The translations under genes were made by a program, and so were the position numbers. From a virus, in the IMG/VR virus record IMGVR_UViG_3300032288_004022, positions 1 to 64,000 of that record: 64,000 nt of DNA; one strand, 5' to 3'. Below are positions 6,281 to 55,287 of this stretch, piece by piece. Every line of letters starts with the position of its first letter. Position 1 is the stretch's first letter. The notes beneath the pieces are model-generated. The model saw only the letters and a list, made by a program, of their open reading frames with translations. It was not told the origin of the DNA and searched no databases.

Positions 6281-6299
6281 TACAGTCAAAGGAGCCCAA

Positions 6300-48691: not shown

Positions 48692-48720
48692 TTGACCAAA
48701 AATAAGCCTTTTGCTATAAT
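48692..48720 (+). promoter_or_regulatory. Early sigma70-type promoter
   Basis: TTGACC-17-TATAAT, TG extension. Confidence 0.85.
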
Positions 48721-48745
48721 TGGGACTTAACAACAAGGAGCCCCG

Positions 48746-48955
48746 ATGGGATATCGCGTTTTGGATACTGTGGACAACATGCGTCAAAAATACGGTGCCC
48801 GTGCTGGGCTTGAAGGCCCGTTCAATTTCTCAGGCCGAGTGTTGTATTATGACAACAAAGAAGGTGCATACTACGATCCCACTACAGATTTCTACGTCAG
48901 CCGCGAAGAAATGGACGCGATCAACGCTGATTTCTACAAAATCCTCAAAAAGTAA
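48746..48955 (+). CDS. Small early protein
   Basis: AAGGAGCC RBS; LEGPF...LYYD.KEG.YYDP. Confidence 0.8.
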   Translation: MGYRVLDTVDNMRQKYGARAGLEGPFNFSGRVLYYDNKEGAYYDPTTDFYVSREEMDAINADFYKILKK

Positions 48956-48978
48956 TACTTTTTAGTACTACTTTTTGG

Positions 48979-49007
48979 TTGACCAATATTTCCCGATCTG
49001 CTATACT
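48979..49007 (+). promoter_or_regulatory. Early sigma70-type promoter
   Basis: TTGACC-17-TATACT, TG extension. Confidence 0.8.
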
Positions 49008-49036
49008 GTAGTCATAGTGAGCAAAAAGGAGCCGAA

Positions 49037-49261
49037 ATGATTCGCAGTGAGTACGAAGCACGAATTCCCGCAACTGAGATCTACAGCTACAGTGGTGTGA
49101 TCACTGTGGAAGACAGCGGCGGCGAGTTGGTGCGTTTCACAATCCAACGCGAAACTGCATGCGATCGTCGCTGGGATGTGGTCAGTGACGCCATGATCCC
49201 CCGCGCAATGGCTGCTGGTCTCTTGGTCGATAAGCCCCTGTTGAGCCAAGAATTGGCTTGA
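49037..49261 (+). CDS. Small early protein
   Basis: AAGGAGCC RBS; own promoter. Confidence 0.7.
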   Translation: MIRSEYEARIPATEIYSYSGVITVEDSGGELVRFTIQRETACDRRWDVVSDAMIPRAMAAGLLVDKPLLSQELA

Positions 49262-49286
49262 CCAAAAATTCCCATTTTGCTATAAT
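49258..49286 (+). promoter_or_regulatory. Early sigma70-type promoter
   Basis: TTGACC-17-TATAAT. Confidence 0.85.
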
Positions 49287-49497: not shown

Positions 49498-49526
49498 TTG
49501 ACCAATAAATCCCCTTCTGCTATAAT
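49498..49526 (+). promoter_or_regulatory. Early sigma70-type promoter
   Basis: TTGACC-17-TATAAT. Confidence 0.85.
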
Positions 49527-49556
49527 ATGTTTTTAACGCACAAAAAGGAGCCAACT

Positions 49557-50579
49557 ATGAGTGCAATTCGTGTTTTGCGTGGTGTGTATCGCAATCAGCC
49601 TGTGCAAGATGTTTCGTTTACTCTTGTCAAAGGGTTTCAGACTGGTGCCAAAGGCGGGTTTGTTACGGTAAAAAATGAGGGACAGTTCCCCGGTTTTGCA
49701 CCCACCATCCGTATTACCATTGACAACATCGCTGACATCGAGTATACTAACGGCATGACACAAGACAATACCGTACATTTTGAGAAGCCCGCCCCTGTTG
49801 CGGAGTCCGATGAAGAAGCAATGACTCGTATCCGCGAGCGTTTTGAAATCCTGACTGAAATGACCAAGGCCACTGTGAGCGGCGACATCCGTGCCATGAT
49901 TGTGTCGGGGCCCCCTGGCGTTGGCAAGAGCTTTGGCGTTGAAACCGAAATTGAAAAGGCTTGCCTTTTTGACAAACTGGCCGGCAAGCGACTGCGTGCC
50001 GAAGTTGTCAAAGGCTCGGCTACCCCGATTGGCTTGTTCCAAACCCTGTACAAATACTCGGATGAGAATTGTGTTATTGTGTTTGACGACTGTGATAGCA
50101 TTTTGCTGGACGACGTGGCTCTTAACTTACTGAAGGGTGCTCTTGACTCCGGCAAAAAGCGTACCATTTCGTGGTTGAGTGAGAGCAGTGCTCTGCGCCG
50201 CGAAGGTATCCCGGATCGTTTTGAATTCAAAGGCTCGGTGATCTTTATCACCAACTTGAAGTTTGACAAAATGAAATCGCAGAAATTGCGTGATCACTTG
50301 GACGCACTGCAATCGCGCTGTCATTATCTGGACCTGACCTTGGACACCATGCGTGACAAACTGTTGCGCATCAAGCAGATTGCCAAGGACGGTGTGCTGT
50401 TTGCAGACTATGACTTTGAAGAAGCTGTGCAAGACGACATCATTGACTTCATGCATGTCAACAAGGATCGACTGCGTGAAGTGAGCCTGCGCATGGCGCT
50501 GAAGATTGCAGACTTGCGTAAGCTGTCTGTGCTGAACTGGAAGCGCCTGGCAGAAACCACTTGCATGAAGACTGCCTAA
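49557..50579 (+). CDS. AAA+ ATPase
   Basis: GPPGVGKS, IVFDDCD, FITN, LQSRC; start 49557 after AAGGAGCC. Confidence 0.85.
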   Translation: MSAIRVLRGVYRNQPVQDVSFTLVKGFQTGAKGGFVTVKNEGQFPGFAPTIRITIDNIADIEYTNGMTQDNTVHFEKPAPVAESDEEAMTRIRERFEILTEMTKATVSGDIRAMIVSGPPGVGKSFGVETEIEKACLFDKLAGKRLRAEVVKGSATPIGLFQTLYKYSDENCVIVFDDCDSILLDDVALNLLKGALDSGKKRTISWLSESSALRREGIPDRFEFKGSVIFITNLKFDKMKSQKLRDHLDALQSRCHYLDLTLDTMRDKLLRIKQIAKDGVLFADYDFEEAVQDDIIDFMHVNKDRLREVSLRMALKIADLRKLSVLNWKRLAETTCMKTA

Positions 50580-50594
50580 ACACGATAGAGTTAT

Positions 50595-50658
50595 ACTGGG
50601 CATTGGTTGGCTCCGGCCCAGTTTTAACAGGTACCCCTAAAAAGGTACCTGTTTTTTT
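50595..50658 (+). ncRNA. Candidate anti-RBS small RNA (hairpin with antisense loop plus terminator)
   Basis: Stem ACTGGGC/GCCCAGT, loop ATTGGTTGGCTCCG complementary to GGAGCC..ATG starts; terminator follows. Confidence 0.6.
50626..50658 (+). terminator. Intrinsic terminator
   Basis: AACAGGTACC...GGTACCTGTT followed by a T run. Confidence 0.85.
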
Positions 50659-50685
50659 GACTTTGTCCAGCAATAAGTATATAAT
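50657..50685 (+). promoter_or_regulatory. sigma70-type promoter, leaderless geometry
   Basis: TTGACT-17-TATAAT, ATG 6 nt downstream. Confidence 0.7.
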
Positions 50686-50691
50686 AATAAC

Positions 50692-51231
50692 ATGTCTGAA
50701 CAAATACTAGGAAAATCTGTAACCGTGATTGCCCCAACCAATCTTTACAAGTGGGCAAGAGTCTGGGGAAGAATCCAAAAAGGATATTATCAAGATACTG
50801 TTTATCTTCGTAGAGAAAAACAGATAGAAGATTTTGTGATCCTTAATCAGTTTGCAAATCTCTACATCGAAAAAGACACTGACATTTTAGAAAATTTAAC
50901 CTCGGTAGCACAGCCCAACCAAGCCGATTTGATCATAATCACCGATCAAAAGTTCAGCAGATTGCCATGTCCTGCATTAATTGACAAGATTGAATCCTTG
51001 CTTGATCAGTGCCCGAGAATGTTTGTTTGCCTGAACAGGCACTACATCAACATTGACAGTAGTTTTGTTGATCCAACAGTTGATGATCATTACCCATTGG
51101 CAATTACTCAATGGCTTGTTAAAAATCTACCCACAGCTAGAGTATTAGATTTAAGCTTGGATTATTTAGACTGTGGCGATTGGTTCACTTGGGTAGTGCC
51201 TGACAGAATGTATTTTATAGAACGCACATGA
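50692..51231 (+). CDS. Hypothetical protein
   Basis: ORF with promoter; AT-rich. Confidence 0.6.
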   Translation: MSEQILGKSVTVIAPTNLYKWARVWGRIQKGYYQDTVYLRREKQIEDFVILNQFANLYIEKDTDILENLTSVAQPNQADLIIITDQKFSRLPCPALIDKIESLLDQCPRMFVCLNRHYINIDSSFVDPTVDDHYPLAITQWLVKNLPTARVLDLSLDYLDCGDWFTWVVPDRMYFIERT

Positions 51232-52432: not shown

Positions 52433-53902
52433 ATGAAAACGTGTACCATAATATTAAAAGATGAAGTAAATATCCGACTGGAAGGACTAGATCTAGATGC
52501 TCGCAAGGCCTTGGTCACGGCTTTTAAATATGATGTACCTTATGCTAGATATCTTCCGGCAGTGAGACTGGGACGCTGGGACGGAAAGGTCTCGTACTTC
52601 CAACTTGGTGGTAGCAGTTATACAAACTTGCTGCCCGAGATTGTTCCCATACTTGAGAAGTTCAATTACGACATTGAACTGGATGATCAAAGAGATTACT
52701 CCACCACATTTGAGTTTGAACAGGTGCGTGAAGACTCATTTGCACATGTGAAATGGCCCAAAGGACATCCTGCCGCTGGTGAACCCATCATGATGCGCGA
52801 CTATCAAGTTGAGATTGTCAACAACTTCTTGGCCAATCCGCAATGCCTGCAGGAAGTGGCCACAGGTGCAGGTAAAACCATAATGACAGCGGCCTTGAGC
52901 AATGCTGTTGCGCCGTATGGACGCTCAATCGTTATTGTGCCCAACAAGAGTCTTGTGACACAGACAGAAAAAGACTACATCAACATGGAGCAGGATGTGG
53001 GTGTGTTCTTTGGCGACAGAAAAGAGTGGGGTCGTACACATACTATTTGTACTTGGCAGAGTTTGAATGTGCTGTTGAAGAATACCAAGGCCGGGGTTGG
53101 TGATTGTACCATTGACGAGTTCCTAGAAGGGGTGGTGTGCGTTATTGTAGACGAAGTACACATGGCCAAGGCAGATGCGCTGAAAACCTTGTTGACTGGG
53201 GTGATGTCTAGAGTGCCAATTCGCTGGGGTTTGACTGGAACCATACCCAAAGAGAAGTTTGAAAGCCAGGCCCTGTTGGTGGGCCTAGGTCCTGTGATTG
53301 GGCGCCTTAGCGCCAACGAATTGCAACAACAAGGTGTTTTGGCCAACTGTCACGTGAATATTGTGCAGTTGGTGGATCACGTGGAGTACAAAGAGTACCA
53401 ATCAGAACTCAAATACTTGCTGGAAGAGTCGGGCCGATTGGATACCATGGCTGACCTCATACGCCGAGTAAATGAAACAGGTAATACTTTGGTGCTCGTG
53501 GACCGAGTGGCCGCAGGACACGCATTAGTAGAACGCCTGGGTGATCGCGCTGTGTTTGTATCGGGCGCAACCAAAGCAAAAGACAGACAAGATGAATATG
53601 ATGAAGTTGCAGACAGCACTGACAAGATTATTGTGGCTACCTATGGTGTTGCCGCTGTGGGTATTAATATCCCTAGGATTTTTAATCTGGTTCTTATTGA
53701 GCCCGGAAAAAGTTTTGTCCGTGTTATCCAGAGCATTGGCCGCGGCATAAGAAAAGCAGAAGACAAAGATCATGTTCAAATTTGGGACATTACTAGCACC
53801 TGTAAGTTTGCCAAACGACATCTGACCAAACGCAAGCAGTTCTACCGAGAAGCCAACTATCCATTCTCAGCAGAAAAGTTGGAGTGGATGAAAATTGCTT
53901 GA
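52433..53902 (+). CDS. uvsW: SF2 helicase UvsW
   Basis: RDYQ, ATGAGKT, VDEVH, GLTGT, QSIGRGIR. Confidence 0.92.
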   Translation: MKTCTIILKDEVNIRLEGLDLDARKALVTAFKYDVPYARYLPAVRLGRWDGKVSYFQLGGSSYTNLLPEIVPILEKFNYDIELDDQRDYSTTFEFEQVREDSFAHVKWPKGHPAAGEPIMMRDYQVEIVNNFLANPQCLQEVATGAGKTIMTAALSNAVAPYGRSIVIVPNKSLVTQTEKDYINMEQDVGVFFGDRKEWGRTHTICTWQSLNVLLKNTKAGVGDCTIDEFLEGVVCVIVDEVHMAKADALKTLLTGVMSRVPIRWGLTGTIPKEKFESQALLVGLGPVIGRLSANELQQQGVLANCHVNIVQLVDHVEYKEYQSELKYLLEESGRLDTMADLIRRVNETGNTLVLVDRVAAGHALVERLGDRAVFVSGATKAKDRQDEYDEVADSTDKIIVATYGVAAVGINIPRIFNLVLIEPGKSFVRVIQSIGRGIRKAEDKDHVQIWDITSTCKFAKRHLTKRKQFYREANYPFSAEKLEWMKIA

Positions 53903-53927
53903 CTTTCCAAGATCAAAACTGTAAAAT
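53899..53927 (+). promoter_or_regulatory. sigma70-type promoter, leaderless geometry
   Basis: TTGACT-17-TAAAAT, ATG 6 nt downstream. Confidence 0.7.
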
Positions 53928-53933
53928 ACAACA

Positions 53934-54434
53934 ATGAGAATACTTACTCTTGACAACGTCTATTATGATTTAAATCAACTGCCCGAAGAAGTTGATGACA
54001 TGCGTTTTGCTATCTTGGACAACAGCAATCCACTGGACCCCGACTATCATTTCATCCCACTGATTTTTCTGGAATCGTTCAATGCTCCGGCCCTGGTACT
54101 GCGCATAGGATCAGACACAATCAAAATGCCCATGGATTGGCAAATCTTGATTGGTGAGCCCGACATTGGTGATCTAGAAGTGCTGCCACTGACTTCAATA
54201 AACGATCGCGGCTTCAAGGTATTTCAATTCAATCCACTCAGCAGCTACAGACCCAGTTTCCCCAGTATTGAAATCTTGGATGTGTACCATGAAGTCAACT
54301 GGTACGCACCCAAACTAAAGAACGGGCAGATGTTGGCAGTGCCGCTCAATGATGATCCCGAACCTGACTGTGTGTACTTTGTGAAAGATGTGAGTCGCAA
54401 TTGTGAAATAGTCAACTACAACAAGGCTTGGTAA
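53934..54434 (+). CDS. Hypothetical beta-rich protein
   Basis: Clean ORF with promoter. Confidence 0.7.
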   Translation: MRILTLDNVYYDLNQLPEEVDDMRFAILDNSNPLDPDYHFIPLIFLESFNAPALVLRIGSDTIKMPMDWQILIGEPDIGDLEVLPLTSINDRGFKVFQFNPLSSYRPSFPSIEILDVYHEVNWYAPKLKNGQMLAVPLNDDPEPDCVYFVKDVSRNCEIVNYNKAW

Positions 54435-54783: not shown

Positions 54784-55055
54784 TGGGCAGTCTCCGGCCT
54801 GGCGCCACATACATCTATGAGCGAGCAGATGGTGTTGTGTATGCTCGAGAGTCAGGTGCAGACCCCAGCACAAGACAGGTAATTGGAATGGATTACGATC
54901 CAAGAACCCCTGACCGACGTCCTTTGCATGATCACATCTCTGAAGACAAATTGTGGGGAGAAATACGGCGAGCTGCCCGCACCAATCCCACTTTACAGGA
55001 TGCACTGAACCGCGCTATAATGATTTACCAACTGAGTAAAACCAATGATGCCTGA
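54783..55055 (+). CDS. Hypothetical protein
   Basis: YIYERADGVVYARE; TAATG coupling. Confidence 0.7.
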   Translation: MGSLRPGATYIYERADGVVYARESGADPSTRQVIGMDYDPRTPDRRPLHDHISEDKLWGEIRRAARTNPTLQDALNRAIMIYQLSKTNDA

Positions 55056-55287
55056 AGAACAGGAAGCACACAATGAGTGGAACGATGGCCGCACAAGGTG
55101 GAAATACAAGACCTTGACTTTGCACGAGGGTGAGCTGACTGACCAACTCACCACACATGGAGTGTTTGGATGGGAACTGGCAGCAATGCACCCTGACAAA
55201 AGAAACAATTCTTCTGTAAATTGTTTTATTGTGGTAATGAAACGCCCTTTTTGGTTCGAACAGCCGCCGGAGCCATCCAATGAGTGA
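55045..55287 (+). CDS. Small DUF4177-like protein
   Basis: WKYKTL...GWEL...MKR pattern. Confidence 0.5.
   Translation: MMPEEQEAHNEWNDGRTRWKYKTLTLHEGELTDQLTTHGVFGWELAAMHPDKRNNSSVNCFIVVMKRPFWFEQPPEPSNE

Follow-up and report, generated by a model that had tools for sequence, protein, structure and literature searches.

In the icaR mRNA of Staphylococcus aureus, an anti-SD motif in the 3'UTR pairs with the SD of its own mRNA, blocks formation of the initiation complex and gives rise to an RNase III substrate (PMC3868564). Other bacterial regulators, such as the sRNAs SdhX, NarS and CpxQ, are derived from 3'UTRs and carry the terminator of their parent mRNA (PMC6393394, PMC7038943, PMC9438474). 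Pyrimidine-rich anti-SD-like sequences located hundreds of nucleotides away from an RBS can reach it by base pairing, which inhibits initiation and promotes decay, and long-range sequences of this kind are generally depleted by selection in bacterial genes (PMC12697547). Among phages, P1 and P7 encode the antisense RNA c4, which blocks translation (reviewed in PMC12197685). Overall, few bacterial or phage cases of RBS control by the 3' end of an mRNA have been dissected experimentally so far. The c4 RNA is located upstream of its targets, contains two loops and is processed out of its transcript. Translational repression by a protein is represented by RegA of phage T4, which has many targets and occludes the start regions of early genes.

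The locus described here was found in a window of 64 kb, the whole stretch of DNA analysed, which is the first part of a single 95,571-bp contig with a G+C content of 46%. The phage of this contig has the appearance of a virulent T4-type phage; no near relative of the window came up when the phage collection was searched at near identity. An AAA+ ATPase gene is followed, after its stop codon (TAA, 50577-50579), by a hairpin with a 7-bp stem (ACTGGGC/GCCCAGT) and a 14-nt loop (ATTGGTTGGCTCCG) and then by the hairpin of an intrinsic terminator (Table 1). Stem, loop and strong terminator are all present as described in the original prediction for this DNA. The 81-nt stretch comprising both hairpins folds with -29.1 kcal/mol (z = -3.4). 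The T7 tract of the terminator shares bases with the -35 box of the promoter that follows, and the succession of T-tract and GAC is kept in relatives. Since ATG 50692 lies only 6 nt past the -10 box of this promoter, the next unit is apparently leaderless. The two SD-less ATGs at 50692 and 53934 are each placed 6 nt after a TTGACT-17-TA(T/A)AAT promoter (50657-50694 and 53899-53936), and a leaderless-type layout also occurs 3' of the terminator in most relatives.

Compared with Rfam 15, the window has no family match at the gathering score, the best sub-threshold match being SAM_alpha with 13.8 bits against 36 (E = 0.5). A tRNA search of the window gave no hit, and no tRNA-like fold was seen. 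No description of the element or of its motifs was found in the literature, and it apparently represents a new RNA motif, absent from Rfam and without earlier description. The other good terminators of the genome (9576, 84171 and 62926) are accompanied by nothing like an anti-RBS element; as these few terminators lack it, an anti-RBS at the operon end is not a general design of this genome. A minus-strand ORF of 158 aa (50603-50127) that starts at the loop complement (GGAGCCaaccaATG) is best read as spurious, because the part of the loop providing its start codon is unconserved and the element shifts relative to the AAA+ gene in relatives; the ORF (50127-50603) is likewise not conserved there.

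The AAA+ protein affiliates with the Pfam family AAA (PF00004; 23.8 bits versus a cutoff of 21.2) and with PHROG 1250, labelled as function unknown. Homologues are present in 1308 phage records, and the Walker A motif GPPGVGKS is invariant in the AAA+ proteins of relatives. The AlphaFold model is poor (pLDDT 55.6). The start codon ATG 49557 is conserved as MSAIR and, in place of 49527, is the real start (MSAIR...). Upstream of the AAA+ gene, relatives have the same promoter cassette. This early cassette occurs in seven copies, five in the window and two at 84.8-85.3 kb (GGAGCC at 84870 and 85282), and consists of TTGACC, a 17-nt spacer, TAT(A/C)AT, an A-rich leader, GGAGCC, 3-4 nt and ATG. In agreement with the original prediction, each of the GGAGCC SDs at 6291, 48737, 49028, 49307 and 49547 is located behind a TTGACC-17-TAT(A/C)AT promoter. 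Transcripts from the nested promoters at 48692, 48979, 49258 and 49498 should end at one shared terminator.

Table 1 Features of the AAA+ locus in the window, and RBS/element sequence types of the AAA+ gene in related phages
Feature	Position	Strand	Remarks
Three upstream nested early cassettes	48692..49286	+	promoters 48692, 48979, 49258; GGAGCC SDs 48737, 49028, 49307
Early promoter of AAA+ gene	49498..49526	+	TTGACC, 17 nt with TG, TATAAT; predicted transcription start ~49533
Target SD and spacer of AAA+ gene, GGAGCCAACU	49547..49556	+	ends 1 nt before AUG 49557
AAA+ ATPase gene	49557..50579	+	340 aa, coordinates including stop codon; proposed regulated gene
Putative anti-RBS hairpin	50595..50622	+	stem 50595-50601/50616-50622, loop 50602-50615, core GGUUGGCUCC 50605-50614
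Intrinsic terminator	50626..50660	+	hairpin 50626-50653 with 10-bp stem and 8-nt loop, then U7 tract
Next promoter	50657..50694	+	TTGACT, 17 nt, TATAAT; overlaps terminator T tract; 3' boundary of element
16/17 loop complement	55266..55282	+	spans SD and AUG of 148-aa gene, within 3' end of DUF4177 gene
RBS/element type GGAGCCAAC(C/U) / GGUUGGCUCC			common form (type 1)
RBS/element type GGGCUAGUAA / UUACUAGCCC			element in loop of a different hairpin
RBS/element type GGGCUAGAAA / UUUCUAGCCC			element in loop of a different hairpin
RBS/element type GGAGUUGGC / GCCAACUCC			element in loop of a different hairpin
RBS/element type CAGGAGCUAA / UUAGCUCCUG			single-stranded, directly 5' of small hairpin
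RBS/element type GGAGCUAAC / GUUAGCUCC			single-stranded, directly 5' of small hairpin
RBS/element type GGAGCGAAA / UUUCGCUCC			single-stranded, directly 5' of small hairpin
RBS/element type GGAGCAA / UUGCUCC			single-stranded, directly 5' of small hairpin
RBS/element type CGGAGCCA / UGGCUCCG			
RBS/element type CAGGAGC / GCUCCUG			single-stranded, directly 5' of small hairpin
RBS/element type GGGAGUA / UGCUCCC			single-stranded, directly 5' of small hairpin

The core of the loop is complementary to the SD and spacer of the AAA+ gene, situated ~1 kb further upstream within the operon, with nine Watson-Crick pairs and one G-U pair, and the duplex of the window's own loop and RBS has an energy of -20.4 kcal/mol. 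As in icaR, the anti-SD resides in the 3'UTR, beyond the target gene, and is complementary to the SD region. Unlike in icaR, the transcription unit is a phage early operon of ~1.1-2.6 kb, and the duplex includes gene-specific spacer bases. Ranked by duplex energy across the genome, the AAA+ RBS is no outlier (about 12th), and the case therefore rests on covariation.

Three IMG/VR scans with AAA+ proteins retrieved between 420 and >598 relatives per scan, and 240 loci with amino-acid identities of 76-100% were examined. In 129 of the 145 distinct IMG/VR loci with enough downstream sequence, the own AAA+ RBS is matched by a perfect complement of 9 nt or more, where the RBS was taken as the 16 nt upstream of the AAA+ AUG and the match had to lie no more than 80 nt 5' of the downstream T-run. 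For the same 145 loci, the reversed RBS gave two matches, the shuffled RBS none and a same-sense copy one. Relatives with a differing AAA+ RBS have a matching pre-terminator element, so that at least 11 RBS/element types are distinguished (Table 1), with duplexes of 7-11 bp. On the tree of AAA+ proteins, the types require 11 changes, and at least 8. Own-type duplexes have energies of approximately -14 to -21 kcal/mol, with the exception of the weak GGGAGUA type at -8.2 kcal/mol, and for most types the own-type pair has the lowest energy in its row. Such repeated wholesale replacement of the pair, as well as the position of the anti-SD in a hairpin loop a few nucleotides before the terminator, separates this locus from icaR. 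It resembles the c4 system of P1 and P7, in which matched loop/RBS pairs also differ between related phages and confer lock-and-key specificity; further common traits are a phage-encoded RNA, its location in the same operon as the target and pairing of a loop around the RBS. In contrast to c4, a single element is present here, downstream of its target and fused to a terminator. The locus also contrasts with the anti-SD-like sequences depleted from bacterial genes in that the element is positively maintained and co-evolves with the RBS.

The limits of the pairing are defined by the register of the alignment. Across SD+0 to SD+8, the proportion paired is 81-98%, and most columns show several standard pair types; in the flanks, made up of the AUG region and the three bases before the SD, it is 19-45%. 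The original prediction had extended the pairing through the AUG. This extension did not hold, as the CAUU at the 5' side of the loop varies among relatives and pairing beyond SD+9 is at background level. Among the 50 distinct sequences of the common form (alignment A1), GGTTGGCTCC is invariant and its surroundings are variable, the 5' part of the loop reading CATT, CAACAAC, AAATC, AGTA, ACTATAC and others. In the AGUA variants (L044, L047, L052, L053 and L058), an upstream GGGAG can pair with the CUCC of the loop, and this alternative local structure would hide the anti-RBS. Tolerance of G-U pairs is confined to this strand: opposite an unchanged G, about 23 loci read AACU and the others AACC, which indicates that the sequences pair as RNA and not as DNA. 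The stems show the same type of evidence. Changes on both sides were found in 12 of the 17 pairs of the hairpin and terminator stems, with compensatory changes in six of seven hairpin-stem pairs and six of ten terminator pairs, and 98.8% of the cells are paired. These values were reached in 0 of 500 shuffles, and slid registers were 25-54% paired; hence, hairpin and terminator are real RNA structures under selection. The covariation between element and AAA+ RBS is, on comparative grounds, strong evidence that the two pair as RNA in an anti-RBS interaction.

The duplex takes in the SD and ends ~1-4 nt short of the AUG, and would exclude the 30S subunit. Repression of AAA+ translation would be the simplest consequence of this coverage. 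In our opinion, the hairpin loop 5' of the terminator is probably an anti-RBS RNA element that shuts off or caps the translation of the AAA+ gene, with shut-off as its most likely effect. We infer the sign of this effect, repression as opposed to protection, solely from the coverage of the SD, and its timing and its mode, in cis or in trans, have the same inferred status.

Several observations concern the origin of the RNA. None of 132 loci has a promoter of the early type 5' of the element, and motifs of the loose sigma-70 and late kinds occur there at background frequency. The hexamer TAAACA, which the original prediction had interpreted as a late-promoter variant, is present at 50577-50582; its role as a late promoter was abandoned, since it is unconserved and the sequence 5' of the element shows no enrichment of any promoter class. 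The distance between the AAA+ stop and the element ranges from 9 to 1731 nt, with various small ORFs in between, and the element always lies directly 5' of the terminator. The missing promoter and the variable distance identify the element as the 3' end of the operon transcript and not as a separate sRNA gene; it would constitute the last ~70 nt of each transcript that ends at the terminator. Similar to 3'UTR-derived sRNAs, the element has no promoter of its own and presents a conserved seed followed by a hairpin and a Rho-independent terminator; with the A/U-rich linker between the two, this layout resembles an sRNA 3' module. NarS, too, regulates within its own operon. In contrast to these sRNAs, the only target supported by covariation is here a gene of the same operon.

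In a cis mechanism, the 3' end would fold back after transcription of the operon is completed and close the 5'UTR against the 3'UTR, as in icaR; the RBS would then work during operon transcription and close thereafter. In a trans mechanism, the terminator-protected 3' end or a fragment from mRNA decay would accumulate and close the RBS later, in a delayed negative feedback. In the predicted fold of the 1128-nt transcript, positions 49547-49557 pair with 50604-50614 with a probability of at least 0.98, and pairing of the SD with the 3' end is part of the MFE folds of all eight other type representatives folded (9/9 with the window). These folds are consistent with the model only and are not specific evidence, as the control with swapped 3' ends was noisy (off-diagonal values 0 to 11), owing to the A-rich leader, which also pairs with the U tract. 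Most of the 105 distinct intervals between AAA+ gene and element have no strong intervening terminator. In six loci (L018, L019, L035, L036, L042 and L043), a difference from icaR, gene and element are separated by a terminator-like hairpin, its U-run and a promoter, and the match is kept. This argues against a strictly cis mechanism, not against the pairing. The inserts (L018:2941-2990, L019:7036-7085, L035:4631-4685, L042:5967-6020), with hairpins of -14 to -19 kcal/mol and a U-run, carry a TTGACT/TAAACT promoter and an extra gene (MSYTSVDGW...), and target and regulator form two transcription units. Trans action of the element is suggested by this split arrangement in six loci only. A fast-diversifying lock-and-key mechanism in trans, in which abundant, terminator-protected 3' fragments from the early operon of a resident phage would silence the AAA+ gene of any co-infecting relative with the same key and perhaps dampen other GGAGCC(A) early starts, is an unlikely extension. 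If true, it would drive the repeated wholesale replacement of both sequences and would give virulent T4-type phages an RNA-based heteroimmunity or exclusion system similar to c4 of P1 and P7.

The original prediction had envisaged a wider function: a 3'UTR-derived or late sRNA acting in trans on a regulon of GGAGCC-tagged early genes, as an RNA analogue of T4 RegA. Several traits of the genome speak for this reading, which we nevertheless consider doubtful. All seven TTGACC-class early SDs of the genome are GGAGCC, and in lineages whose loop reads GGCUCC this tag is found in 70 of 150 other early leaders, an enrichment that is real. The following base is an A in 51 of these 70, resulting in a 7-nt complement to UGGCUCC. 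Duplex energies at GGAGCC sites (-13 to -16.3 kcal/mol) are roughly within the top 1-5% of genome windows, the terminator and promoter between AAA+ gene and element in some loci favour trans action, and the sRNA-like 3' module would fit as well. However, in lineages in which the loop has switched to AGCUCCUG, UUACUAGCCC or UUUCUAGCCC, the orthologous early genes keep GGAGCC or other SDs and none has acquired the new tag; the MNFEQA gene, for instance, retains GGAGCC in L083 and L111 despite a switched loop. The contrast of 70/150 with 3/17 derives from few, phylogenetically non-independent loci, the element has neither its own nor a late promoter, and the anti-AUG part of the loop is unconserved. 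The covariation of loop and RBS tags thus extends to the AAA+ RBS and not to the tags of other early genes, and it supports one target only. What stands of the original prediction is an anti-RBS RNA at the 3' end of an early operon that pairs with an SD-containing start region in at least 11 covarying types, its conserved partner being just the AAA+ RBS of the same operon. The upstream cassettes are possible weak secondary targets; their SDs form duplexes of -14.8 to -16.3 kcal/mol with the loop and show no co-switching in relatives. The element would share with RegA the shut-off of early-gene translation by occlusion of the start region, and differs from it in that the effector is an RNA with one supported target. 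As a separate observation, GGAGCC(A) occurs in 70 of the 119 GGAG-containing early leaders scored (window 6291, 48737, 49028, 49307; genome 84870, 85282; L001-L160); the MNFE and MQNW gene families have GGAGCC almost always, and the CC gives no help in 16S pairing. Another target put forward in the original prediction, the 16/17 loop match at the start of the 148-aa gene, is present and is the best plus-strand site in the genome (-28.2 kcal/mol versus a window mean of -8.8, sd 3.0). It is specific to this genome, being absent from all relatives with a readable orthologous start, and about 55 relatives have an orthologue of the 148-aa gene with its own promoter and without GGAGCC. The match may be coincidental or may mark a second target particular to this lineage. 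The label 'gp62-like' for this gene obtained no support from Pfam, NCBIfam or PHROGs. The DUF4177-like gene (80 aa, 55045-55287) overlaps the start of the next gene; a search of the ~160 related loci then fetched did not recover it, which points to a recent insertion in this genome.

With the pairing itself established, two further readings concern its purpose. The same duplex could protect or stabilise the mRNA, either by keeping an endonuclease, for example RNase E or a RegB-like GGAG cutter, away from the SD or the 5' end, or by coupling stability to translation. The duplex does include GGAG, which is the cleavage motif of T4 RegB. A precedent exists in hbs of B. subtilis, where an interaction of 5'- and 3'-UTR controls the access of a ribonuclease (PMC5737220). 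We regard a protective role as quite improbable, given that a duplex over the whole SD and spacer should exclude the ribosome and that long-range anti-SD sequences were inhibitory in a systematic study of B. subtilis (PMC12697547) and in icaR (PMC3868564). Far less probable still is a function at the level of DNA, with inverted repeats around the AAA+ cassette that are recognised by a DNA-binding protein or a recombinase. Formally, the two motifs constitute an inverted repeat of 7-11 bp that brackets the AAA+ gene, and both sides change together. Yet the strand-specific G-U tolerance would be senseless for DNA repeats, and one of the two repeats invariably coincides with the SD and spacer of a gene, the other being located on the transcribed strand directly 5' of a terminator, in a covarying loop or single-stranded by a hairpin. 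The constant genomic context, moreover, is hard to reconcile with a mobile cassette. The reading that we prefer is translational repression of the AAA+ gene by the 3' end of its operon transcript.

The AAA+ cassette with the element also occurs on contigs of 209-349 kb (L060, L076, L099, L103 and L243). The phage family consequently has jumbo-sized members, and the contig of 95.6 kb is possibly incomplete. The homologue loci of Vibrio phage D506 and Cronobacter phage LPCS28 have plain terminators only. Pseudomonas phage PA5oct (L161, MK797984.1 248735-249960) encodes an AAA+ homologue of 41% identity, annotated as 'thioredoxin', with the RBS AGGAGUAGCAUuuAUG. A hairpin 20 nt after its stop codon has a 3' arm (AUGCUACU) that is complementary to 8 nt of the RBS; with a chance of roughly 1-2% for such a match at that position, it is a weak lead, and PA5oct is a possible cultured-phage handle for the element.

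The natural variation over more than 140 uncultured phage contigs is the equivalent of a large compensatory-mutation experiment, and it defines an RNA element absent from Rfam whose partner is known at nucleotide resolution. It indicates that selection, which normally acts against anti-SD sequences within mRNAs, can also maintain one as a regulator. Synthetic translational control could draw on the orthogonal RBS/anti-RBS pairs as parts. For the phages themselves, the element offers a testable model of how a T4-type phage may limit an early AAA+ ATPase, a protein widespread among phages and without assigned function.
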